IMG/VR virus record: IMGVR_UViG_3300023504_000019
Coordinates: 1-37,873 of that record
From: a virus
DNA length: 37,873 bases
Reading direction: 5' to 3' (one strand)
Position numbers and translations under genes: made by a program
Notes under the pieces: generated by a model
Told to the model about the DNA's origin: nothing
The model's database searches: none
What the model saw: only the letters and a program-made list of their open reading frames with translations
In this document: one piece after another, positions 1,808 through 24,748 of the stretch
Layout of the letters: every line of letters starts with the position of its first letter
Numbering within the stretch: the first letter of the stretch is position 1

Positions 1808-3802
1808 TTACCAAGTTGTTTTAGTTGGTGGTACATCTGCTACCTCTATCTGCGATACATCAGAGAGTACGCGTTTACCGTAGATCGTTCTTGCACCGGA
1901 TGCAGCGAAGTTTCCTACTAAGGTTATTTCCCCTCTTATGTCTACCGACGCCGTTCCTTCTACCCGTGCACGGTCTTTCAATACAAGTTTCCCGTAGACG
2001 GTGGCTGCACTATTCGCATCTGCACGCACGATTCGGGAATCGTCCCGCATTATCAGTTCTCCCACGAATCCAATAGCGGCATCTAATACCGCATTATCCG
2101 ACATAACTAGGTTCATTACTCCCGATGCCGCGTCCCGTTGTTTCAGTACTTTCGCGTTTCCGGACAGAATCAATCTTCTAATAATCGGAGGATTCGCCAC
2201 AACGGCGGGAATGTACTTCGCATTGTCAGCCATGTAAATGTAACCTTCGACATTACCGTTCTTCAATTCAGCATTGCCTCCGATGTAGCCGTTACCCTTA
2301 AGTGGCGTATCGGTTACCTGTGCGTTCCCTTCGATCCTGAATGATCCGTCAATTACAATCGTAGTTGCTGTTGTGTTCACAAGCTGACTAGCACCGTCCT
2401 GCGTGCCTCCGAATACGTTGCCTCCTCTGATTGTGAAAAGACCCGTAATAGTGCAGTCTTTGTATATGACGCTCTCATAACCTGATACGCTACCTATGTT
2501 CCAGTTAACCACGCTAGCATGAGCTTCTACTAAAGCCAAGAAGGTTTTTCCGCTCGAACTGTATAGGCGATACATTCCCTGTACGTTAGAACTTACTAGA
2601 CTGATAGTGGAATTCTTAGACGGGGACTTCCCTAAGTCCGCCATAGCCTTGGTGAAGTCGATGTTATCCCATACGTTCACCTTTGGGTCGTAGTAATGGA
2701 TCGCCGAACCTGCGGGCATGTTACACTGCTTAAAGTAGAACGTCTTGCCGGATGCATACATAGCAGTTAGGTCGGGGAACACCACGGACGAAAATTCGAA
2801 GTTCGGGCAATCGGTCACGTTGAAAAGTCCCTTTATTACGTAAACCTCCGATACGCTAGCCGGAGTATTGATGTTCGTGTTACGGAACACACCGGAAATG
2901 TGATGGCTAACCCCACCCGTCAATACCAAGTTGTAATTGACCTTGATAAAGTCCGCATTCGCCAGGAATATATTTTGTTTATCGAACACGCATTCCACAC
3001 GGATGTATGAATTCTGAACGACTGATTTGGTAGGTGACGCGGATAGCCCCGATACCGTGTACCGTAGCATGTTACTAGCATTAGTTACAGCACCATTATA
3101 CACTGGAACGATAGACGAATTGAACACGGTTATCTCGGATGCCCTTGCCTGTGTTACGGTCACCCCTGCTGCGGTCACGTCCGCCGGAGTTATTGCCGTT
3201 TCGGTTACTCCGCGAACCTCCACAAGGATATACGGTGCTGTCGAAGTCAAGGTAACAGCAGGACCGCCAACGGCCCAATCAGTTGCGGACACAACGATTC
3301 CGGCTTCGTTCAATGAAATTAACCTAGCTCTGTAGGCGGTGCCTGTGATAGCCACCATTCCCACAGTCCCGGCATGTATTGGTACCGGAATTCTCACACG
3401 GTTAGCTGAGGGCGATTTAACGGGAACGCTCCCCACCACCGCGCCATATGCACCTTGCTCAAACATAGCTGGGGTCTGCGCTACCTCAGATACGCCCGTT
3501 TCAAACGAGATAGCACCCATGATACGGGAATTACCGGAAATGATAGTAGCTTTAGGTCTAGCGCTGCTCTTTGGTAGGTTGTTACCCATGTCCACAATAG
3601 CCTCATCCATAACACGTACACCGGGATATTCCAGTGACCCGCTAAATATCCAACAGTTACCGTCCTGCGACAACGTGTTAGCATCGTAGACGTATCCGCC
3701 TAGTTCCATAGGACAAACGTCCCGCCCTTGTACCGTGAAGGGGCGTAACGCTCTTACCCGTTTACGCCCGCCTTCATCGATAATGTCATACTTACAACTC
3801 AT
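1808..3802 (-). CDS. Tail fibre / tailspike-like protein (664 aa), paralogous in parts to the 904-aa fibre
   Basis: ATG at 3802. The C-terminal 200 aa consist of repeated G-N-A-x-V / G-x-x-x-V turns (GNAQVTD, GGNAELKNGNVEG, SGNAKVL, SDNAVLD), suggestive of a beta-helix. It shares the SQ[DE]G[NE]CW motif and an FEQG-initiated module with the neighbouring fibre. Confidence 0.5.
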   Translation of the reverse strand: MSCKYDIIDEGGRKRVRALRPFTVQGRDVCPMELGGYVYDANTLSQDGNCWIFSGSLEYPGVRVMDEAIVDMGNNLPKSSARPKATIISGNSRIMGAISFETGVSEVAQTPAMFEQGAYGAVVGSVPVKSPSANRVRIPVPIHAGTVGMVAITGTAYRARLISLNEAGIVVSATDWAVGGPAVTLTSTAPYILVEVRGVTETAITPADVTAAGVTVTQARASEITVFNSSIVPVYNGAVTNASNMLRYTVSGLSASPTKSVVQNSYIRVECVFDKQNIFLANADFIKVNYNLVLTGGVSHHISGVFRNTNINTPASVSEVYVIKGLFNVTDCPNFEFSSVVFPDLTAMYASGKTFYFKQCNMPAGSAIHYYDPKVNVWDNIDFTKAMADLGKSPSKNSTISLVSSNVQGMYRLYSSSGKTFLALVEAHASVVNWNIGSVSGYESVIYKDCTITGLFTIRGGNVFGGTQDGASQLVNTTATTIVIDGSFRIEGNAQVTDTPLKGNGYIGGNAELKNGNVEGYIYMADNAKYIPAVVANPPIIRRLILSGNAKVLKQRDAASGVMNLVMSDNAVLDAAIGFVGELIMRDDSRIVRADANSAATVYGKLVLKDRARVEGTASVDIRGEITLVGNFAASGARTIYGKRVLSDVSQIEVADVPPTKTTW

Positions 3803-4533: not shown

Positions 4534-5697
4534 CTATGATTTGCGGGAACGTCCCGGTTTATACTTGGCAATTAGGTACTCCACCGCATAACGGGTAGCG
4601 TCCATTGCGTGGTTATGGTCATCTATCGCCTCTGTGACGTCATACAAGCCCGTCATTCGATCCAACACATAAGAATAGGTATCTAGCTCATCCGTGATCC
4701 CTCGGCTTCCCACAACCACGCAAATCTTCTTGAATTGCTTGATTTGTGCGATGCCCGACATGATGGACCCCGCCCCCTTGATGCAAGGAAATATCTTGCA
4801 CCCCAGTGACGAGATTTCAGCGATACTCTTTTGCTCGGCCGAATCGGCGATAGTCACAACCTTATGCAGCCCTTTCGACTTAAGCAGCGTAGCGATATCC
4901 CAGTTAAGCAGACCGGGCGTATATGCGATTTCCTGCAAATACAGAACGTCATCCAAGAAACCTACTTTCACGATCGCCGTAGGGTCACCCGTGAAACCGA
5001 AGTCCATCCCAAGACAGAATTTAGCGGTAGCCGGGAATTCCTGCACCATCTCGTATTCCGGGAATATCAGACCCTCGGTTCCGCCTGTCTCGCCTTCACC
5101 GAATACCCGCCACCAGTTTTCATCGTTCCTGTTGGATTCGATTTCCTCGACTTGTTCGGGCGTCAGATACGGATTATCGCGATACGTGGAAACTATCTCC
5201 ACCATGTTGTCTCCTACAAAGTACTCGTGTGCCCAAAACTTCTTGACTGGATTAAAGTCAACGAATAGCATGAGACGGGTACGGACCGCCATCTGTCTGA
5301 ACACTTCTTTAGGGACCCTTTGCGCCTCATTGACAAAGAGGATGTCACGGGCGGGACCGAATACCTTAGCGGAATTCTCGCACCCGAAAAATTCGATCTG
5401 TGACCCGTTCTCCGTGGTGTAGATCATCTCGGTGTACTGCATCCGCTTCTCGGACCATACCCCCTCATCCTGTAACATACGTTTGAAGTCACGGAACATA
5501 CCACGCTTCACGCCGGGCAATGTATCCGTGACACACGAAATAAGGAGCGGCTTCTCCGATTGAGTAGCCATCAAGTAGATTAGTTGCAGCATGGACCATG
5601 TTTTCGAGGATCGTGTTCCGCCTCGACTGGATACCCCGCGGATATTCGGGTCCACGGCTGCTGCTAATAACTTGTCAAATACATACGTGGTTTTCAT
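4534..5697 (-). CDS. terL: Terminase large subunit (387 aa)
   Basis: Walker A-like RGGTRSSKTW, Walker B-like ILFVNEAQ. RNaseH-like nuclease motifs GMDFGFTGDPTAIV, IADSAEQKSIAEI and DDHNHAMDATRYA, typical of PBSX/Terminase_3-type TerL. ATGA overlap with the upstream terS. Confidence 0.9.
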   Translation of the reverse strand: MKTTYVFDKLLAAAVDPNIRGVSSRGGTRSSKTWSMLQLIYLMATQSEKPLLISCVTDTLPGVKRGMFRDFKRMLQDEGVWSEKRMQYTEMIYTTENGSQIEFFGCENSAKVFGPARDILFVNEAQRVPKEVFRQMAVRTRLMLFVDFNPVKKFWAHEYFVGDNMVEIVSTYRDNPYLTPEQVEEIESNRNDENWWRVFGEGETGGTEGLIFPEYEMVQEFPATAKFCLGMDFGFTGDPTAIVKVGFLDDVLYLQEIAYTPGLLNWDIATLLKSKGLHKVVTIADSAEQKSIAEISSLGCKIFPCIKGAGSIMSGIAQIKQFKKICVVVGSRGITDELDTYSYVLDRMTGLYDVTEAIDDHNHAMDATRYAVEYLIAKYKPGRSRKS

Positions 5698-6317
5698 TCC
5701 TTCGGTTTATCCTTTAAGTTCTCAACTCCTTTAGCTTTCCTTTCTCTCTTAGTGGAAATGCCTCGCAACTGCTGCAAATTACCTGCTGCTTCGTTGCTGA
5801 GTACCTCCACCTTCAATGATCCTTCTACCTTCTCGCCGCCACTGGTGACATCCCTGTATTCCTTTAGCCCTCTTAGCTTGGCGGTGTAAGTGGCATCGAA
5901 CTGTCCTACCATCGCCGATTTATCCATGTCGTCACGAATCCATTCACGGATGTTATCTATCTCTCTCATGAACTTCGCTGATTCCGCATCTCCAAACTTT
6001 TCGTGCATATCCTTGTAACTCTTCATGCGGTCGGTTAGGTAGCTCCCGTTTGCGCCGAGGAACTGAGTAAATCCGAATTCAGTTACCATCAGTTTCATTT
6101 TCTTCGTGTAACTACGTCCTGCGTTCATCCCCGACTTCACGTAATCAAGCACCTCGATCGGGTGATTCCGGCACCATTGGACGTACACATCGAACACTTC
6201 CCGTAGCTGTCCCGGTTCCGTGAATAGCGGCGTCTTGCCGAATCGTGCGGTGTAAAGACTCCACAGTTCATCGCCGGAGTAGGGGTCGTATATATCGTTT
6301 AATAATTTATTTGCCAT
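5694..6317 (-). CDS. terS: Putative terminase small subunit (207 aa from MANKLL)
   Basis: Immediately upstream of and overlapping terL. First gene after a promoter. The N-terminal segment ...LREVFDVYVQWCRNHP resembles the gp3-type packaging-protein pattern. The track start at 6329 is a GTG; the ATG at 6317 is more likely. Confidence 0.5.
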   Translation of the reverse strand: MANKLLNDIYDPYSGDELWSLYTARFGKTPLFTEPGQLREVFDVYVQWCRNHPIEVLDYVKSGMNAGRSYTKKMKLMVTEFGFTQFLGANGSYLTDRMKSYKDMHEKFGDAESAKFMREIDNIREWIRDDMDKSAMVGQFDATYTAKLRGLKEYRDVTSGGEKVEGSLKVEVLSNEAAGNLQQLRGISTKRERKAKGVENLKDKPKE

Positions 6318-6350
6318 ATCAATGTACACATGCGTGGTTATTTAATGCGG

Positions 6351-6382
6351 CAAAGGTAAGAGAAACAACTGATGATTCCAAA
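6351..6382 (-). promoter_or_regulatory. Bacteroidota-type promoter driving terS and the late arc
   Basis: On the minus strand: TTTG (6382-6379), 20-nt spacer, TACCTTTG (6358-6351). This is an exact fit to TTTG-N19-21-TAnnTTTG, 26-40 nt upstream of the terS start candidates. Confidence 0.6.
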
Positions 6383-6439
6383 GAGGACCGGACCAAGTTA
6401 TGGCGTGCCGGATGGGGCCGTGAATCGCTAGGTCATCTC

Positions 6440-7080
6440 ACTGCAAAATCGGGTGGATAGATTACTAATCACTATAAACACGTGATTCTCAGACGCTTAC
6501 AAAAAAGGTGATAGGTAGTGATTTTTTACTATCACCTGTAACTCACTGATTCACTGCTATTTACAGAAAATGGATAGATCGATAGGAAAATCTCAAAGAG
6601 TATATCAGAAAAACACGGTTTGCGATGTTCAATTAACATAATCGAATTAACACAATTCATCAACACACCGTTTTTTTTCTTGTAATAGCAAATACCCCAT
6701 TTTTACCTATTTTCCTATCATCCCTATCATAACTAACTAATAATCAGTAACTTACAATGATAGATATATAAATAGGCATCTATCTTTAAATATGTTAACT
6801 ACCTTGAAATGAGCAAGTTACAATGATTGGTAAAAAATCACTACCTATCCATTTTCTCCTACTTGGTTTGTATCTTACTGTATTTCAATCACTTATGAAG
6901 CTACTAGGGGACTCCCGTTTTCCCTGCCTTCCTATCTATATGGACCCTCGAAAACTACCGTTTTTAATGTTATGTAAATATTCTCGCTTCCGTATTTTCG
7001 CCTCACAGCACCTTTGTATCCAAACTATTCAAAACTAATCAAAAAGACGCAATGAAAAATTCGGACCCTAGATAGGGGTG
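6440..7080. repeat. Iteron-rich non-coding module A (GATAG-core repeats around an AT-rich spacer)
   Basis: GGATAGAT at 6455-6462 and 6572-6579. GATAGG at 6581-6586 and 7071-7076. GATAGAT at 6759-6765. Reverse copies CCTATC at 6714-6719 and 6723-6728, ATCTATCT at 6778-6785, CCTATCC at 6844-6850, CCTATCTAT at 6931-6939. Perfect dyad AGGTGATAG (6506-6514) / CTATCACCT (6529-6537). No credible ORF on either strand. Confidence 0.8.
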
Positions 7081-7228
7081 AAAAACTGTTCTTCCATTTT
7101 TTGGCAAAAATAGGGTGATTCAAAGGTTTTGCCTCGCTACTGTAAACATTTATACAGGCTAATTTCGGAAACGTTTTATCACACATTTCTCTACTTTGCA
7201 CAAAACACTACCGTCTCCCGAAAATAAG

Positions 7229-7269
7229 AAACGAGGACCCTCGGCAATCACACCGAAAAGTCCTCGTTT
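7229..7269 (-). terminator. Rho-independent-type terminator ending the early arc
   Basis: 10-bp stem AAACGAGGAC (7229-7238) / GTCCTCGTTT (7260-7269) with inner TCGG/CCGA pairing. On the minus strand it is followed by CTTATTTTCGG. It lies 26 nt downstream of the last early CDS. Confidence 0.6.
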
Positions 7270-7294
7270 GACACTATGAAATTAAGAAAAGGTT

Positions 7295-15012: not shown

Positions 15013-15015
15013 ATC

Positions 15016-15174
15016 TTAAGCCTCCCTTACTCCTATTAGTTCATATTTATTTGCTTTACAGTATCTATACGCCACATCGAAAACTTTCTTTATAGTTGTT
15101 TCTGTGTAACATTGATAATCTCTTTTACCTTCTGAGTTTCTAAATTCAATGATGTAAACTTTACCAGCTTTCAT
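15016..15174 (-). CDS. Possible small ORF (52 aa, MKAGKVYIIEFRNSEGKRDY...), first gene after cassette P2
   Basis: Translated manually. ATG at 15174 lies 47 nt downstream of the -7 box. Its stop is 3 nt before the next ATG. Confidence 0.35.
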   Translation of the reverse strand: MKAGKVYIIEFRNSEGKRDYQCYTETTIKKVFDVAYRYCKANKYELIGVREA

Positions 15175-15220
15175 AATCTTATATTTTTTAATTGTTACTA
15201 CTTGTTTAACTTTGATGATG

Positions 15221-15291
15221 CAAATATAGGGCAGGTTTCTGAATTTGCCAAATTTTGAACAAAGAATTAACTTTGATTAACGATACAATAA
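15221..15291 (-). promoter_or_regulatory. Promoter cassette P2 (Bacteroidota type)
   Basis: Minus strand: TTTG (15252-15249), 20 nt, TATATTTG (15228-15221). Upstream block GTTAATCAAAGTTAATTCTTTGTTCAAAATTTGGCAAA. Confidence 0.65.
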
Positions 15292-15332
15292 AAAACCACC
15301 CTTACAGGACCGTCTCGGCTGTGTAAGGGTGG
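15290..15332 (-). terminator. Rho-independent terminator after the primase-helicase gene
   Basis: 11-bp perfect stem CCACCCTTACA (15296-15306) / TGTAAGGGTGG (15322-15332), followed on the minus strand by TTTTTT (15295-15290). Confidence 0.75.
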
Positions 15333-15458
15333 AAAAATAATGAAAAGCATTCGACAAAATTAGTTTCATGCTGAGGACCTCCGTCCCCGTGAATTATCAA
15401 TAAATACTATATATCTCAATGGTGCTACAAAGATAATGCTTTATTCGGTATATGTATC

Positions 15459-17819
15459 CTATCTCCGCACAAACATTGTTTGCTTACCGTACAGTTTTAC
15501 GTTTCTCTGCTTGTCGGGTTTAAATCCCGCCCGTTTCAGCATGTTCGCTACCTGTTTAGCCCTTGCCACGTTGAAGTCGGTACGCTTGTTTCCTAAGCAT
15601 TCCACCCATATTTCGAAGGCACAAAAGCTGTCCCGTATCTCGGTTCCCTCCGGTTGCAATCCCACTCCGTTAACGAAATCCAAACGGTCGGCTACATACA
15701 TATCCTCCCAATTGGCGGGGAACTTGCGGTTAACGTATTCGAATACCAAACCTTCTTGCGGGTCCTTCTCGGTAAATTCTTCACGTTTACCGTTAGCTAT
15801 CTCCTCGGCTTCCGGTGACAGGATAAGACTTTCGCCGGCTTTATACAATTCTACCGCTTCCGCCCAAAGTTGGTCCACGATAACTTGAAATTCCGCTTTC
15901 CGTTTCGGATTCAGAAATATATCAGATGCCGGAACACGTCTCACAGGGACCGGAAAGAATCGGCGGCTTCCCGTGGGGTCCTTAAGGAAATCATCATTGT
16001 TGGTGGACCCAAAGAAAACACATTGCCGTCTGTGTGTCTTAACTCGCATCGCATATGCCGCCCTATAGGTATCCTCCGTTTTAGAGATGAAATTCTTCAT
16101 CGTCTCTATGTCGGTTTTCTTTAGGGCTGACAGTTCGGCAAGCTCCACAAGCCAAGACTTTTGTAGGGCTTCATAGGCTTTCGTGCCCTCCATCGAAACA
16201 AGCGAGTCGTTAAACCAACCGTTCGCAAGTTTCTGTATAAGAGTTGACTTACCTACGCCCTGCTCTGATACCATGATGAACGCCGTATCAAACTTTGTTC
16301 CCGGTTCGAAGATGCGGGCAACCGCCGCCACGAGCATTTTACGGAATGCCTCTGCCGTGTAAATGTTCTGTTCGGCACCCATGTAATCGTGCATGAACGT
16401 GTCTATTCTTGGAATAAAATCCCATTCCAAACCATTCAAATAGTCTTTAATCGGGTGGAAAGAATTCTCCAAAGCCAGTACTTCGATCACGTCGTTTAAC
16501 CTGTCTTTCGCATACAGGCGGTGAAGGCGTTCGATTCTACATTTGATAACAGCTACCCCGGTATCGTCCAGTACGTCACCTTTTACTTTCGTCTTGTCAA
16601 AGTACGGTGTGCGGGTATAAACCACCACGTCACGGAAAAGGTCATAAGCAAGTAACTTGTTCAATAACGGGTCAGACTTAAAGGCGTTGATAAAGTTAAC
16701 CGTCGTATTGGTCTTGTTACCTTTTGAGTCAAGGTCCCATTCGATTTCCGTTTCTTCCTCTGTCTCTGCAATGGCTTCGTCCGGAATTTCCTCGAAATCG
16801 CCTAGATAATCCTCTACGGCGGTTAGTTCCTTAACGACTTCCGAATCCTCATGTACTAGCTGATTCATTGCCGTCTCGCTCTCCTTCTTCCCCAAATGTC
16901 CGAACAAGTGAACACGTACCAAGTCATAAGCGTTGTATGTGTGTCCGTCTCCGATGGGGTCAGTTGAATGGTGGGAATAAGCGAATTTATCTTCATACAC
17001 TACCATTCCGGCGGCGGATGTTCCACCCTTGTATGTGTATCGGTCGTTACCGCATTCCTCGTAAACATCGGACAGATATTTTTCTATCGCTCCCTGTATG
17101 GTGTAAACGCGACAGAACGCACCGATTAATCCGGTCTTGGTTGTGGGGTCGGCTGATTCTTTGATGAGCGTTCTTACCGTTTGCTCTTCGCTGTCAGCGA
17201 ACGCCCATAGGCGAACGTCTTGCCAAGCCTCACCGCCTCCGTACAAGTCTAGGATGTAGTCTACATCCAGTGGTTCGCCTTCTTGCTGCTCGAAATAGAA
17301 TTGTTGGTCACAGGAAATGGTAGCCCAAAACATTAAACGCTCGGCTTGGAACGTAGTCGGGTCGAATAGTTCGATCCCCATTATTTCCGCCACTTTGCGT
17401 GAACAAGCCTCGTACTCTTCCCGTGTATCTATTTCCCTATTCAAAGGGATAATAAGGCGGAATCTACGCTTGTTCGGTCTATCGGAACGTGTACCATAGA
17501 TGGCTGCGGCGCAACCGAACTTGATAGAGAAATCGAAAAAGAAATCATCGTTCCCGTAGTCAACATCCAATGTGATAAGTGATCGTGATGTTACCGAATT
17601 CTTGGTGCGGCGACCTCCGGAAAGCGTGCCACCTACGAAACCGCCCTTGTCTTTGCGGATAGCCCTTTCCGACTTTGCTAGCAAATCATATTCTCTGACG
17701 GTTTCTGTATCCACCTTCGGCGTGGAAAGGATGCCTATCAGCTCATCCCATGTGTAAGACTTCCTTTTCCAATTCGTTGAACGGGCACCACCACCGACAG
17801 AGATATTGTATTTTTCCAT
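15459..17819 (-). CDS. Bifunctional primase-polymerase / VirE (D5-like SF3) helicase (786 aa)
   Basis: C-terminal P-loop MVSEQGVGKSTLIQKL and the VirE signature FFGSTNNDDFLKDPTGSRRFFPV. The N-terminal half has PrimPol-like acidic motifs (LITLDVDYG). Confidence 0.85.
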   Translation of the reverse strand: MEKYNISVGGGARSTNWKRKSYTWDELIGILSTPKVDTETVREYDLLAKSERAIRKDKGGFVGGTLSGGRRTKNSVTSRSLITLDVDYGNDDFFFDFSIKFGCAAAIYGTRSDRPNKRRFRLIIPLNREIDTREEYEACSRKVAEIMGIELFDPTTFQAERLMFWATISCDQQFYFEQQEGEPLDVDYILDLYGGGEAWQDVRLWAFADSEEQTVRTLIKESADPTTKTGLIGAFCRVYTIQGAIEKYLSDVYEECGNDRYTYKGGTSAAGMVVYEDKFAYSHHSTDPIGDGHTYNAYDLVRVHLFGHLGKKESETAMNQLVHEDSEVVKELTAVEDYLGDFEEIPDEAIAETEEETEIEWDLDSKGNKTNTTVNFINAFKSDPLLNKLLAYDLFRDVVVYTRTPYFDKTKVKGDVLDDTGVAVIKCRIERLHRLYAKDRLNDVIEVLALENSFHPIKDYLNGLEWDFIPRIDTFMHDYMGAEQNIYTAEAFRKMLVAAVARIFEPGTKFDTAFIMVSEQGVGKSTLIQKLANGWFNDSLVSMEGTKAYEALQKSWLVELAELSALKKTDIETMKNFISKTEDTYRAAYAMRVKTHRRQCVFFGSTNNDDFLKDPTGSRRFFPVPVRRVPASDIFLNPKRKAEFQVIVDQLWAEAVELYKAGESLILSPEAEEIANGKREEFTEKDPQEGLVFEYVNRKFPANWEDMYVADRLDFVNGVGLQPEGTEIRDSFCAFEIWVECLGNKRTDFNVARAKQVANMLKRAGFKPDKQRNVKLYGKQTMFVRR

Positions 17820-20672: not shown

Positions 20673-21840
20673 TTTCGATGTCGAAATCACTTGATACATC
20701 ATAGTCCTTACCGGGGTGACTGTCCGGGACAAGTTTAGGTGCACCGGGCTGAGACTTAACGTATTCACCCAATTTGGCGGTGAAAACCTTCTTTCCCACT
20801 AGCTTCTCTAGGTCGGTGATCCCTTTCAGACTGATGTTCAGCACTTCGTCTTCTAGGTATTCTTTTAGAAGGATGTTACGCACCTTATCGGGGTCTACTA
20901 TCTTCCGGGCTGTCCGTCCCTCAACTAGCTTGTACCCTTCCCACTTCTTTCCCCTCATAGCCTCGCTATATGCGTATTGGTTGAGAGATTCAAGCCACGA
21001 CTTATACCTATCCAGTTTACCAAGCATATCGACAATTTCCTCATCAGTCATAACCAATGTGTCGGGATGTTCTTCGAAGTCACGGGCTATCTCATCCTTT
21101 TGCGCTCGGCATGTGGCTTTCACCGGGCAAAACTGGCACCAACTTCCTACCACCTGCTTTCCCTTTCCTTCGAACGCTAGCTTGGCTTTAGGCTGCAATA
21201 TCTTCGTAGCCCATTCTAGCAGATCGGGGACCGACATTTCGATAGTATCGTAGTGGTGTAATCTAGGCTGTCCCACTGACATACGAACGTACTTGATACT
21301 TCCATTGTTGAACTTGGCAAGCGCACCAAGTGCGTACATTTTGAACTGTGGGCTTTCCGCCGGGACCTTCACCCCTTTTCCATACTTAAGGTCTATGATG
21401 TGCAAAATAGAAGAGGATAACAGTGTAACATCGGCACTACCGAACGATTCCGGTGCAAACTTAGAGATATCTAGCTTTTCCTCTAGGTGTGTTGCCACTG
21501 GTCCTCCAAGCGGTCCTTTCTGCATCTCGTAGAATTCTCCCGCCACGAAGTTAACGTATTCGCCTACCGCATCTCTCATTTCCTCTGAGAAGTACTTGTT
21601 TTTGGCTATTTCATCCGGGACGGGCATCTCGTCGCATTCGGGGTAAAACGTTCCATTTATCCAACTTTTCAGCGCATATTCAGCCAATTCGTGCGCTGTC
21701 GTGCCTTCCTCGGCGTATTCGCTTGTCTTGCTTCCGGCGGCTTCCGCTAGGCGTGCGGACGGCGTGCAATTAAGCCAACGCTCGGAGGATGAAGGGGACA
21801 AAACAGCGTGTCCCCTTTCGGAATGGTTTATGCTTGACAT
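20668..21840 (-). CDS. DUF2800-type PD-(D/E)XK (Cas4-like) nuclease (390 aa)
   Basis: N-terminal HAVLSPSSSERWLNCTPS. Catalytic-like core ILHIIDLKYGKG. C-terminal cysteine cluster CQFCPVKATC, consistent with a Cas4-type Fe-S site together with the N-terminal Cys. Confidence 0.8.
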   Translation of the reverse strand: MSSINHSERGHAVLSPSSSERWLNCTPSARLAEAAGSKTSEYAEEGTTAHELAEYALKSWINGTFYPECDEMPVPDEIAKNKYFSEEMRDAVGEYVNFVAGEFYEMQKGPLGGPVATHLEEKLDISKFAPESFGSADVTLLSSSILHIIDLKYGKGVKVPAESPQFKMYALGALAKFNNGSIKYVRMSVGQPRLHHYDTIEMSVPDLLEWATKILQPKAKLAFEGKGKQVVGSWCQFCPVKATCRAQKDEIARDFEEHPDTLVMTDEEIVDMLGKLDRYKSWLESLNQYAYSEAMRGKKWEGYKLVEGRTARKIVDPDKVRNILLKEYLEDEVLNISLKGITDLEKLVGKKVFTAKLGEYVKSQPGAPKLVPDSHPGKDYDVSSDFDIES

Positions 21841-22580
21841 ATCAATTCGTAAAAGTCGTTATAACGCTCTGATTGCAATGTCCCAAAGTTAGTCGCTCCA
21901 CATTCGGCGAATGCGTCCGCAACGGCTTGACGCTTTTTCAATCGGATTAACTCGGTCGCTTTCTCTCTCAGCATCTCGATCGTCACTTCCGGAAAATCTT
22001 CGGCGGGTGCTGCTTTTTCCGGAACTTCTTCTGCTTCCTGTGGTTCAATAGCTTGCGTCTGTGGTGCGTTCTCTTCCTCTGCTACCGTTTCTTCTTCTTT
22101 GGCCTCGGCGTTAATAGCGGACAGCAATAAGCCCCTCAATTTGGCGTTCGTATTCTTACCGGGACGTTCCGCCGGATCAATATTGAAATGCCCAGTTAGG
22201 ATGTCATAAAGCACCTGTGTAGGAACGGCTTTCATTTCTTCCTCAGACATTGCACAAACGGCGTCTACCGTGTGATAAGTCAAGTCATCTCCCGGTGCTT
22301 CCGGTGCTTCTTCCCCTTTCACCTGTGTAGCTTCCACTACCTTGTTAGCTAAAGCCGCTACCTTTTCCTCGTGGGTGATTTCTTCCTCTACCACTTCGGT
22401 GGGTGCCTTCTTGCTTTCCAAGATTATCGCTTTCCCTGTCGGTACTTCCTTCGGTGTTTCTCCAAAGGTGGGGAAACCGTTCGCTTGGTTACGTTCGTTC
22501 GCCAGTGCGAGAAGAAAATCTGAGGCACATTTCATCTCATTACCTAAACTCTGCTCGTCAATGCTAATCGTTACTTTCAT
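21828..22580 (-). CDS. Highly acidic early protein (250 aa)
   Basis: Long Glu/Pro/Ala-rich tracts (EEAPEAPGDD, AKEEETVAEEENAPQTQAIEPQEAEEVPEKAAPAED). Third gene of the first early transcription unit. No family recognised. Confidence 0.5.
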   Translation of the reverse strand: MKVTISIDEQSLGNEMKCASDFLLALANERNQANGFPTFGETPKEVPTGKAIILESKKAPTEVVEEEITHEEKVAALANKVVEATQVKGEEAPEAPGDDLTYHTVDAVCAMSEEEMKAVPTQVLYDILTGHFNIDPAERPGKNTNAKLRGLLLSAINAEAKEEETVAEEENAPQTQAIEPQEAEEVPEKAAPAEDFPEVTIEMLREKATELIRLKKRQAVADAFAECGATNFGTLQSERYNDFYELICQA

Positions 22581-22582
22581 GA

Positions 22583-22768
22583 TTACTGTTTTTTAAATGT
22601 TAAATATTTGTTAGTTATCTCGTTCTCGTCTACGCGAATCTTCCCCTGTTGGTTCTTATACTCGCTTAAATGACCTTGCCTAATTTTGTACCGGATGGCA
22701 TTTTCCGTTAGCCCTATCATATGGGCTGCTTCGCTGATTCTAATCAACTTTGGTTTTACTTCTTCCAT
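22583..22768 (-). CDS. Small helix-turn-helix DNA-binding protein, MerR/excisionase-like (61 aa)
   Basis: LIRISEAAHMIGLTENAIRYKIRQGHL fits the HTH_17/Xis-type motif. Confidence 0.6.
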   Translation of the reverse strand: MEEVKPKLIRISEAAHMIGLTENAIRYKIRQGHLSEYKNQQGKIRVDENEITNKYLTFKKQ

Positions 22769-22770
22769 TT

Positions 22771-23076
22771 TTAAAAATTCTTAGATTTGTGAAACGTACT
22801 CAAAAAATCTTTGTAAGCCATCTCCACCGCTCCGGCGTAAACCGAACGATACTTGTTAGCTGTCGGATAGATGAACGCACGAATTTTAAATTCAAACTTT
22901 TCTCCGCCGTCCTCCCTCGCTAGCTTTTCACGAAATAACTCTTCGGTCGTTAGCCGAAACGGTGAACTGAACTTGTTATATACGTCTGTGGCTTTTAATT
23001 GCGTGTTGATGTGCAACCAAGCCTCGTCATAATAAAATTTCTCTAGCTTGCAAAGATTAACTCTCTCTTTTCTCAT
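22771..23076 (-). CDS. Hypothetical first early protein (101 aa from MRKERVNL)
   Basis: Track ORF 22771..23094 begins at a TTG. The first ATG is at 23076. Confidence 0.45.
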   Translation of the reverse strand: MRKERVNLCKLEKFYYDEAWLHINTQLKATDVYNKFSSPFRLTTEELFREKLAREDGGEKFEFKIRAFIYPTANKYRSVYAGAVEMAYKDFLSTFHKSKNF

Positions 23077-23174
23077 AACTTGATTGTTTTGCAAATGACC
23101 CGTGAACGCTCGTATCGTTACTTTTGTGTCACCTCGGAGTGTTGATGACCCGTTTCATTTGTAATTCGATGCTG

Positions 23175-23235
23175 CAAAGATACTGCTTTTATTTGAATCT
23201 GCAACAATTTGGGCAAAAGAAATCGTATCATTAAC
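23175..23235 (-). promoter_or_regulatory. Promoter cassette P4 (diverged copy), first early promoter
   Basis: The -7 box TATCTTTG (23182-23175) is exact. The -33 region is only near-consensus (ATTG/TTGT). The upstream block GTTAATGATACGATTTCTTTTGCCCAAATTGTTGCAGA aligns with P1-P3. Confidence 0.5.
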
Positions 23236-23259
23236 TTTTCTTAGCTATTCGGGGTGATT

Positions 23260-23650
23260 TTGAGGCGTGGATAGATAACTATCCGTTTAAAGCCTATGAT
23301 TACTAGCGAGTTACGTAATGGGTGGATAGATTAAAAAGTCTTAAAATCATTGTAACTTGCTGCAAATCAGTGATTTATGGAAAAGTGGATAGATTGCTGC
23401 AAACTTCTCAAGAGTATAACGTAAAAGTGTGTATGTTGATTGATAAATTATCTACACAAGCTAAAAATACACACTATAAAAGTTTTCTCATATATACATG
23501 GAAATTACCTATCACATCTATCCATATTAGTATAAATGCCTTAAGATTAGTGAGTTACGAGGATAGGTGAAAAAGTGTTTCCTATCTGTATAAATGTTAA
23601 ATCCCTGCAAATCAATGACTTACAGGGATAGATTTATGGATAGGTTAATT
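23260..23650. repeat. Iteron-rich non-coding module B, paralogous to module A
   Basis: GGATAGAT at 23269-23276, 23324-23331, 23387-23394 and 23626-23633. GGATAGG at 23561-23567 and 23638-23644. Reverse copies CTATCC at 23279-23284, CCTATC at 23508-23513 and 23581-23586, ATCTATCC at 23516-23523. Palindrome GGATAG-ataa-CTATCC at 23269-23284. Confidence 0.8.
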
Positions 23651-23678
23651 TATTTAACTCGATTTTGCCATCTCGACA

Positions 23679-24245
23679 TTACAATTCAGCACTAAATCGG
23701 ACGTGTAACCGTGATTTTGGATTCTGATTTGTGACTGTGGTCTGTATTTTGGGCTTCCCAATTCTAAAAAATAGGAATCTCTTCTGCTTAACATGGCTAA
23801 TTACGTCTAGCGTATCGACGGAACTAAATTCTAATTTGGTGGTATCCGGGGAAACTACGCCGCTAATTTTGTTCCAAGAATCATCGTAGGAGAACTTATA
23901 CTGGTTCGGGACCTCCGTTTTCTCTGTTACTACTACCGTATCTATCCGTAACTCTGATTCTATGGTGTGTACCGCCTTAACGTCCCTTAACTTTAGACGT
24001 AGGTTTGCAACCTGTTCTGTTAAACGACTGTTAAATAATTCCAGTTCGTTACTTTTCAAAGTTAGGGCTTGGACCGTCTCGGCGTCCTTTCCGGCTTTCG
24101 TTTTGAACCGGGTAGCCTCGGTATTAATGGCTTCTATATTGCTATCTAGCCGCCGTATCTCCTTCTTTTGGCTTTCCACCTTATTATATAAGATGCCCAC
24201 TACTATGAGAAGTAGTAGGCAACCTGCGATTAAATATTTGCTCAT
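23679..24245 (-). CDS. Membrane-anchored coiled-coil protein, spanin-like lysis accessory (188 aa from MSKYLIAG)
   Basis: The ATG at 24245 makes an ATGA overlap with the amidase stop. N-terminal TM segment YLIAGCLLLLIVVGILY, then heptad-rich helix, then a beta-rich C-terminus. Last gene of the late arc, after holin and amidase. Confidence 0.35.
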   Translation of the reverse strand: MSKYLIAGCLLLLIVVGILYNKVESQKKEIRRLDSNIEAINTEATRFKTKAGKDAETVQALTLKSNELELFNSRLTEQVANLRLKLRDVKAVHTIESELRIDTVVVTEKTEVPNQYKFSYDDSWNKISGVVSPDTTKLEFSSVDTLDVISHVKQKRFLFFRIGKPKIQTTVTNQNPKSRLHVRFSAEL

Positions 24246-24748
24246 GGCGTGATGATTACGTTTTTCATGAATGTTCCATACTCCGCCCGCACATCGTAGC
24301 AGGGACACATCTTAATGAACTCGAAAGGTTCTACCTCGCCGCTTCCATTCTTATCGGGGGACGTGTCACGGTGACCCAACAGTTCCACGATAGGATAACG
24401 TTTACATATGTCGTTGATTAGGTCTATCAACGCCGCTTTTTGTTCCGGCGTGCGGGTATCCTTCGCCTTCCCGTCTTTATCCAAACCGCCTACGTAGCAG
24501 ATACCAATCGAATGGCGGTTATATGATTCTTTAGAAAAGCCTTTTGTGTTGCAGTGAGCACCGATTGCGGTTTCATTCCGTCCCTTTTCGATCTTACCGT
24601 CTAGACGGATAACATAGTGATAGCCGATGCCGTTAAAGCCTCGCTGCTTGTGCATGGCATCAATTTCCTTTGCGCCAATGTCTTGCCCTTCCCTAGTGGC
24701 CGAGCAATGGATAATAATGGCGTCTACTTTATTGCTGTTGTTTATCAT
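24242..24748 (-). CDS. N-acetylmuramoyl-L-alanine amidase endolysin (Amidase_2/PGRP type, 168 aa)
   Basis: IIHCSAT, GYHYVIRLDG and HCN...SIGICYVGG match the zinc amidase signature. Confidence 0.85.
   Translation of the reverse strand: MINNSNKVDAIIIHCSATREGQDIGAKEIDAMHKQRGFNGIGYHYVIRLDGKIEKGRNETAIGAHCNTKGFSKESYNRHSIGICYVGGLDKDGKAKDTRTPEQKAALIDLINDICKRYPIVELLGHRDTSPDKNGSGEVEPFEFIKMCPCYDVRAEYGTFMKNVIITP

Follow-up and report, generated by a model that had tools for sequence, protein, structure and literature searches.

At the point where the late genes of a Bacteroides phage end and its early genes begin lie about 585 non-coding bases (23095-23678) that carry one short word many times over, in both orientations. 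What is this DNA for? The locus, referred to here as module B, belongs to IMG/VR virus record IMGVR_UViG_3300023504_000019, which was analysed at its full length of 37,873 bp (the window); it represents a Bacteroides siphophage of the 38-kb cluster alpha, with a genome that is complete and circularly permuted. An earlier description made from the letters (the original prediction) had presented the locus as an iteron array, with an implied function as a replication origin. Origin function stands as the best-supported reading, with its basis now placed in analogy and homology: we estimate a probability of roughly 55% that module B is an iteron origin of the type found in staphylococcal pathogenicity islands (SaPI), and that it is one of two paralogous, co-evolving copies in the genome, the other being module A (6430-6860). 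This reading is preferred because of the iteron layout, a phage helicase homologous to SaPI1 Rep1, a site word that changes by clade, the low duplex stability of the locus and the paralogy of the two modules.

The array and its transcriptional surroundings

The density of the repeat was far above expectation. In region 23240-23660 (421 bp), 10 CTATC cores were counted where the rest of the genome would predict 1.3 (P = 1e-6), and 8 CTATCC cores where 0.35 would be predicted (P = 4e-9); the maxima in 2000 dinucleotide-preserving shuffles were 5 and 3, respectively, and neither observed count was reached. The 8-mer ATCTATCC occurred 10 times in the window (about 1.2 expected), with five copies in module B and two in module A, and the word read on the coding (minus) strand was ATCTATCC(AC). 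The sites were 8-10 bp long, were found in both orientations and were spaced 9-65 bp apart. Six lay upstream and four downstream of an AT-rich core (spacer 23395-23507, 72.6% AT against 54% genome-wide), and those flanking the core opposed each other, with S5 and S6 on the plus strand and S7 and S8 on the minus strand. When duplex stability was compared over the whole genome, the least stable 100-bp window was in module A (6701-6800) and the second least stable in module B (23437-23536). The minus strand carries all genes of the window, and the features of module B are listed below in the direction of transcription.

23679-23681, minus strand: stop codon of the last late gene (DUF6549/spanin-like, 23679-24308), upstream boundary of module B
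23638-23645, minus strand: site S1, ACCTATCC, direct; mean conservation 0.91 over 12 genomes of clade T1
23626-23633, minus strand: site S2, ATCTATCC, direct
23601-23629, minus strand: 13-bp hairpin, AUCCCUGUAAGUCA-U-UGAUUUGCAGGGAU, probable late-operon terminator
23579-23586, plus strand: site S3, TTCCTATC, inverted
23561-23568, minus strand: site S4, ACCTATCC, direct
23507-23523, plus strand: sites S6 and S5, ACCTATCA and ATCTATCC, an inverted tandem pair 9 bp apart that adjoins the core
23395-23506, no strand: AT-rich core of 112 bp, about 73% AT, candidate DNA-unwinding element
23387-23394, minus strand: site S7, ATCTATCC, direct, adjoining the core and facing S5 and S6; invariant in the 12 genomes
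23324-23331, minus strand: site S8, ATCTATCC, direct
23269-23284: palindrome GGATAG-ATAA-CTATCC, made of site S10, ATCTATCC (23269-23276, minus strand), and site S9, AACTATCC (23277-23284, plus strand)
23175-23205, minus strand: early promoter of the Bacteroides sigma-A type, with -33 GTTG, a 19-nt spacer and -7 TATCTTTG; conservation 0.94

Every coordinate given in the original prediction was borne out by the letters. The forward GGATAGA(T) copies at 23269, 23324, 23387 and 23626, the GGATAGG copies at 23561 and 23638, the perfect palindrome at 23269-23284 and the dyad GGATAGG-N13-CCTATC at 23561-23586 were all present, as were the reverse copies, with CTATC cores at 23279, 23509, 23518 and 23582. 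The region was indeed non-coding, with a short word in both orientations around an AT-rich spacer, and it did follow the end of the late genes (23679) and precede a canonical Bacteroides promoter. The elements said to come before the forward copies were found (CTGCAAATCA at 23361 and 23606, GAGTTACG at 23309 and 23552), with the refinement that one 'CTGCAAATCA-n-TGA-n-TTA' makes up both arms of the hairpin.

This hairpin (23601-23629) folded with -18.6 kcal/mol on the minus strand (z = -6.1), compared with -12.2 kcal/mol on the plus strand (z = -2.4). Hairpins were present at the same position in other clades, where they were of unrelated sequence and several were followed by a U-run; because of this, the hairpin is probably the terminator of the late operon. 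The same observations bear on a different explanation, in which the repeats would be a non-coding RNA or several transcription terminators instead of DNA sites bound by a protein. A palindrome that folds far better on the transcribed strand, where it gains G-U pairs, and its counterparts at the same position in other clades would both be expected of such an RNA. However, a strong hairpin was formed by one unit only, the CTATCC cores lay outside the stem or at its foot, in both orientations, and the hairpin would account for one element of the module and not for the array. Rfam, tRNA and tmRNA scans found nothing. An RNA explanation for the whole array is very improbable.

The early promoter lies about 65 nt beyond the last palindrome of module B and is followed by a leader and then by the ATG of the first early gene. 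The consensus for Bacteroides sigma-A promoters, reportedly described by Bayley et al. in 2000, is said to be -33 TTTG, a spacer of 19-21 nt and -7 TAnnTTTG; the early promoter (23205-23175) agrees with it, and the element was conserved across clades. Full matches to the consensus on the coding strand numbered five in the genome, all five of them intergenic. As the terminator lies inside the upstream arm of the array and the promoter about 65 nt past its end, module B would also form the boundary between late and early transcription. No extra host-type promoters were recognised within the array, where TGATTTGCAG lacks the TA of a -7 box and stands at distances from the sites that differ by 6 nt. 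T7-like promoters, considered for a resemblance to ...ACTCACTA..., were ruled out, as the genome encodes no single-subunit RNA polymerase.

Some further features of the promoters and leaders were recorded. The internal canonical promoters at 20643-20612, 15252-15221 and 11277-11246 (all minus strand) share a near-identical extended -33 region, TTTGTTCAAAATTTGG, which is missing from the promoters of modules A and B; this suggests a separate class of 'middle' promoters. Between the early promoter and the first ATG of phage SJC25 (L004, about 3385-3700), a GC-rich element of about 120 nt (gttagacgttcagccccaccgaaaccggg...ggggaaaagtgaaagggattcccc) is repeated three times in tandem, and one copy each is present in BT16 and BF1-8. 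This element may be a structured 5' leader RNA. The leader in the window (23077-23170) is shorter and different.

Related phages and the paralogous module A

Relatives were collected by means of the last late gene (53), the nuclease (80), the large terminase subunit TerL (65) and the helicase (1 more). Across the query region, the window was 94% identical to Bacteroides phages BT16, BT19, BT23 and BT12 and about 75% identical to phages BT709P1 and BF1-8; SJC25 was also related. Cluster-alpha siphophages are among the most often isolated phages of B. thetaiotaomicron. The paper describing these 38-kb siphoviruses, which infect B. thetaiotaomicron, makes no mention of replication, promoters or intergenic regions (bioRxiv 10.1101/2020.03.04.977157), and a full-text literature search on iterons and origins of Bacteroides phages found nothing.

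The repeats were not confined to this genome. The array was conserved in all relatives examined, while its word was specific to the clade. Where the whole gap was included it measured 560-710 bp, and the layout was kept: one or more direct sites, the hairpin, inverted and direct sites, a tandem inverted pair, the core, direct sites and the promoter. The AT-rich core was 100-115 bp long across clades, an inverted tandem pair stood at the position of S6 and S5 in all of them, and opposed sites around the core were also seen in clades T2-T4 and in module A. Among the 12 genomes of clade T1, with gap identities of 60-93%, conservation was 0.85 at site positions against 0.715 between them (P = 6e-4). 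The words were as follows.

Clade T1 (including the window): ATCTATCC
Clade T2: ATC(T/A)ATGCA
Clade T3: ATCTATTACAC and ATCTGTGACAC
Clade T4: ATCTTTnnCAC
33-kb group: TCTGTGTA and CTGTGCAG
More distant phages that share the replication module: ATTGTTTA and TGTAGTG

The exact T4 tandem pair was also used as a scan pattern over viral contigs and was discarded; it is of low complexity, and its matches were mostly unrelated giant-virus contigs.

Because the layout was conserved while the word changed by clade, the sites are, judged from such comparison, read by a phage-encoded protein that co-evolves with them, to the exclusion of a host factor such as DnaA. Host-protein sites had been considered since ATCTATCCAC resembles TTATCCACA, and the array could then have served as an origin dependent on DnaA or as a sink for it; CTATCCAC, the reading of three copies, agrees with the DnaA box of the E. 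coli type at 7 of 9 positions. However, it was the ATCTATC side of the site that was conserved among copies and relatives, and not the CAC flank, and the only 8/9 match to a DnaA box in the module (TTATCTACA, 23448-23456) was not conserved. The word differed between phage clades, and the T1 word was common to a B. fragilis phage and B. thetaiotaomicron phages. A cluster of DnaA boxes (TTATNCACA, with a conserved CACA end) is ruled out by the variable CAC flank together with the clade-changing word, and DnaA is the most improbable of the explanations that were considered.

The original prediction had placed module B in the same motif family as module A, and this was upheld: both the word family and the layout recur there, and the two modules are collinear in the window, with a local alignment of z = 10.8 and 69% identity over 168 nt.

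6430-6860, minus strand: module A array, an inverted pair, an AT-rich core and a direct pair, followed by a promoter (6382-6351) and the small terminase subunit gene terS (5694-6329)

The tandem inverted pair of module A (6715-6728) and its tandem direct pair (6573-6585) stand on either side of AT-rich DNA, and the whole gap (6330-7294) lies directly upstream of terS and terL. In the upstream third of this gap (6860-7294), a terminator-like hairpin (about 7267-7228) is accompanied by some 350 bp of other non-coding DNA, in which GGGTCC repeats and two additional CTATC cores (6932 and 7071) were noted.

The two modules of a genome resembled each other in the other clades as well. In clade T2, identity between modules A and B of the same genome was 72-89% over 185-336 nt and exact repeats reached 60 nt, and the two matched genome by genome in the sub-variant of the word, both being rich in ATCAATGCA or both in ATCTATGCA. 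Module A of a T3-like genome had both T3 variants, as did module B of a similar genome. Five T2 contigs of about 21 kb (L017/L181, L020/L184, L019/L189, L027/L193 and L022/L197) extend from inside module A to inside module B and hold late genes only. This fits with assembly breaks at the exact repeats common to A and B, and the two-module repeat would explain how such half-genome contigs come about.

The position of module A raises the possibility that the arrays are packaging (pac) sites, bound by the small terminase subunit (TerS) that is encoded just past it. Module A adjoins terS (phrog_606, a weak gp3-type match) and terL, and repeated boxes on both sides of the cut site are a feature of pac regions, for example in SPP1 and P1. 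It was also found that phages with a 77%-identical TerL and another TerS N-terminal domain have no array upstream of terS. In contrast, module B is neither in nor next to terS but about 17 kb away from it, and it would be out of the ordinary for a phage to have two pac sites. Between T1 and T2, TerS was better conserved in its N-terminal half (67-69% against 49%) though their words differ, and distant phages sharing the replication module have similar arrays upstream of the replication operon. PhageTerm analysis of cluster-alpha phages had detected no terminal repeats or cohesive ends, from which headful packaging was inferred (bioRxiv 10.1101/2020.03.04.977157); the inferred headful packaging is in keeping with a pac site, whereas the lack of defined ends speaks against one. 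By the same published analysis, terminal repeats or cohesive ends at module B are unlikely. Taken together, a packaging function for the arrays is improbable, though less so than an RNA or a DnaA target.

The phages with the 77%-identical TerL form a 34-36-kb group (L151-L179, L196, L198 and L201). The C-terminal 45 aa of their TerS are common to the window, while the N-terminal domain is unrelated, and the recombination point appears to lie inside terS. The absence of an array in this group had also been taken as an argument against TerS as the reader; that argument was withdrawn, the TerS N-terminal domain being different there too.

The candidate reader and competing explanations

The early operon begins after module B with the genes for a 101-aa protein and a 61-aa HTH_17 protein; next come those for a 250-aa acidic protein, a DUF2800 nuclease and an Enc34-type single-strand binding protein, followed by those for a family-A DNA polymerase and a 786-aa primase-helicase. 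On the other side of the module, the lysis genes come last in the direction of transcription, the amidase gene (24242-24748) being followed by the DUF6549/spanin-like gene. The genes that could encode the reader of the sites are the following.

15459-17819, minus strand: primase-helicase, 786 aa, with an N-terminal primase, a VapE-type SF3 helicase and a C-terminal domain of winged-helix topology; proposed site reader
22771-23076, minus strand: first early gene, 101 aa, ATG at 23076; candidate alternative site-binding protein
22583-22768, minus strand: second early gene, 61-aa HTH_17 protein; candidate alternative site-binding protein

The primase-helicase was the protein of choice for the origin reading. 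Its residues 372-704 matched SaPI1 Rep1 (PDB 7PDS) with E = 3.4e-70, and the Walker A, Walker B and arginine-finger motifs were intact; 7PDS, a complex of Rep1 with DNA, was the sole solved structure that matched the protein. The N-terminal 376 residues matched phage primases (phrog_9765, E = 1.5e-90), and VapE-like_dom was matched as well (E = 2e-75). The C-terminal domain (691-786) was the part that diverged most between word types, with 33% identity between T1 and T4 compared with 56% for the whole protein, and 52% between T1 and T2 compared with 67%. An AlphaFold model of residues 655-786 showed a strand-helix-helix-helix-hairpin arrangement of winged-helix topology (predicted local distance difference test, pLDDT, 81.5), and a homologue search with the C-terminal domain alone returned two proteins only.

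By analogy with SaPI Rep proteins, we infer both the identity of the binding protein and a start of replication at module B. The primase-helicase would bind the sites through its C-terminal winged-helix-like domain, assemble on both flanks of the core, melt the AT-rich DNA and load itself. Primers would be made by its N-terminal primase domain, after which the family-A DNA polymerase, the Enc34-type single-strand binding protein and the DUF2800 nuclease would take over. Each copy of the origin seems to be built into a junction of terminator and promoter.

Several observations weigh against an origin read by this helicase. Foldseek searches with the C-terminal model gave no significant match (best E = 0.38), and the weak matches were to winged-helix proteins, none of them to SaPI Rep structures. 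SaPI origins lie immediately downstream of rep, whereas the helicase gene of the phage is separated from the arrays by 5.3 kb on its upstream and 8.2 kb on its downstream side, and the gap directly after it (15013-15458) contained a hairpin and promoters but no array. SaPI origin sites are also more tightly spaced than those of module B, which stand 9-65 bp apart with other conserved elements between them. The divergence of the C-terminal domain does not single it out, as the first early protein diverges just as fast (32% identity between T1 and T4); comparison of divergence was dropped as a means of naming the reader because all proteins, the first early protein included, diverge clade by clade. 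Lastly, the placement of both modules just upstream of host-type promoters at operon junctions is also what a transcriptional role would predict.

Such a role is the main rival to the origin reading, and a serious one, although it is clearly the less probable of the two. The arrays would be regulatory nucleoprotein sites for the first early protein and the HTH_17 (excisionase/MerR-like) protein, which might silence or insulate the early promoter, activate the late promoter that precedes terS, or stop read-through where the DNA is circular or concatemeric. The modules do end 65-75 nt before canonical promoters (23205-23175 for module B and 6382-6351 for module A), exactly where late genes give way to early ones and middle genes to late ones. 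In all clades the HTH_17 gene stands second in the early operon, and arrays of short repeats are the targets of excisionase-type winged-helix proteins such as lambda Xis and P2 Cox. The first early protein, besides its rapid divergence, is fused to the HTH protein in clade T2, and this fusion points to a functional link between the two. Its AlphaFold model had a pLDDT of 57.6, which was too low for a fold search. On the other hand, clades with different words hardly differ in the predicted recognition helix of their HTH proteins (TENAIRY...). The distance between the last site and the -33 element ranges from about 53 to about 100 nt by clade, which argues against the fixed geometry of an activator. 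The three other canonical promoters of the genome have no array, and a conserved core of 100-115 bp, sites that face each other and the least stable DNA have no obvious role in promoter control.

A further view, which we consider rather unlikely but somewhat less so than a packaging function, would unite replication and transcription. Modules A and B would form one coupled system, in which the same initiator-helicase acts on matching arrays at both major operon junctions. Occupied arrays would pair or act as roadblocks to transcription, and the loading of the replication machinery would set the timing from early to late expression and split the genome into two domains. The need for the arrays to match would maintain the co-evolution of A and B, which in one clade share exact repeats as long as 60 nt.

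Other observations were made around these genes. The fused protein that corresponds to the first two early genes (22583-23076) in clade T2 is 166 aa long (L013-L029). At least 13 independent contigs of related phages (L070-L072, L080, L081, L083, L089, L090, L098, L106, L119, L127 and L285) begin 225-400 nt upstream of the DUF2800 nuclease gene, inside or just past the acidic, length-variable third early gene (21828-22580 in the window). The shared starts may be explained by repeated assembly breaks at a hypervariable region, but they may also hint at a genuine terminus or packaging position. An open reading frame of about 52 aa (MKAGKVYIIEFRNSEGKRDYQCYTE..., 15015-15174, minus strand), below the 60-aa limit of the list of open reading frames, closely follows the primase-helicase gene, and the gap around it holds a perfect hairpin with an 11-bp stem (15296-15332).

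Comparison with known replication origins

If the origin reading is correct, a known origin design would be found in a phage group for which no origin had previously been described, a conclusion drawn by analogy that we hold to be somewhat better than an even bet. The cluster-alpha phages would gain two defined origin candidates and a named initiator, and the self-loading helicase and iteron design of SaPIs would be extended from Gram-positive satellites to lytic phages of Bacteroidota. The clades would provide naturally occurring word variants, each with its matching C-terminal domain, in which to study how such helicases read DNA. Parts for Bacteroides tools, for example phage-dependent replicons and a conserved early promoter, would also become available.

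The best parallel is with SaPIs. Their origins have 6-12 penta- or hexanucleotide iterons around an AT-rich centre, with about half of the iterons on each side and at least two per side in opposite orientation, and their Rep proteins are self-loading initiator-helicases in which a C-terminal winged-helix domain recognises the iterons; PriRep5 of SaPI5 is a primase-helicase fusion of 790 aa (PMC9371898). Module B has 10 CTATC cores (23269-23645), which is within this range, divided 6 and 4 by a central AT-rich core, with at least two sites per side in opposite orientation. The phage encodes a homologous SF3 helicase (the match to Rep1 given above) with a variable C-terminal domain, in a primase-helicase fusion of nearly the same length as PriRep5 (786 aa). 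The phage differs from SaPIs in having two paralogous arrays per genome, each placed at an operon junction together with a terminator and a host-type promoter, and in the wider spacing of its sites. It is a lytic Bacteroides siphophage with its own DNA polymerase and not a satellite island, and binding of the iterons by the C-terminal part of its helicase is a prediction only.

Two other phages offer precedents for the pairing of loci. Bacillus phage SPP1 has two separate origin regions, oriL (inside a gene) and oriR, in which the same boxes, bound by G38P, adjoin AT-rich DNA. In SPP1, however, origin binding falls to a separate protein, G38P, which acts together with a loader and a DnaB-type helicase, and the proteins of the two systems are not homologous. 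In satellite phage P4, ori and crr are bound by the alpha primase-helicase, a protein of about 780 aa that combines primase, helicase and a C-terminal DNA-binding domain, and the short repeats are at two loci kilobases apart, as in the window. Unlike module A, crr does not amount to a complete second copy; it consists of two 120-bp repeats and serves as a helper element, and the likeness to P4 is one of description.

The iteron origins of lambdoid phages (lambda O) and plasmids (the Rep proteins of P1, F, R6K and pSC101) share with module B the principle that repeated initiator sites adjoin an AT-rich unwinding region and that site specificity co-evolves with the initiator. Their iterons, however, are 17-22 bp long, run head to tail with a regular spacing of about 22 bp and are often accompanied by DnaA boxes, and their separate initiators recruit a host helicase. 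Module B, with sites of 8-10 bp in both orientations and a spacing of 9-65 bp, does not belong to this classical type, and it is the SaPI origins that it resembles most.

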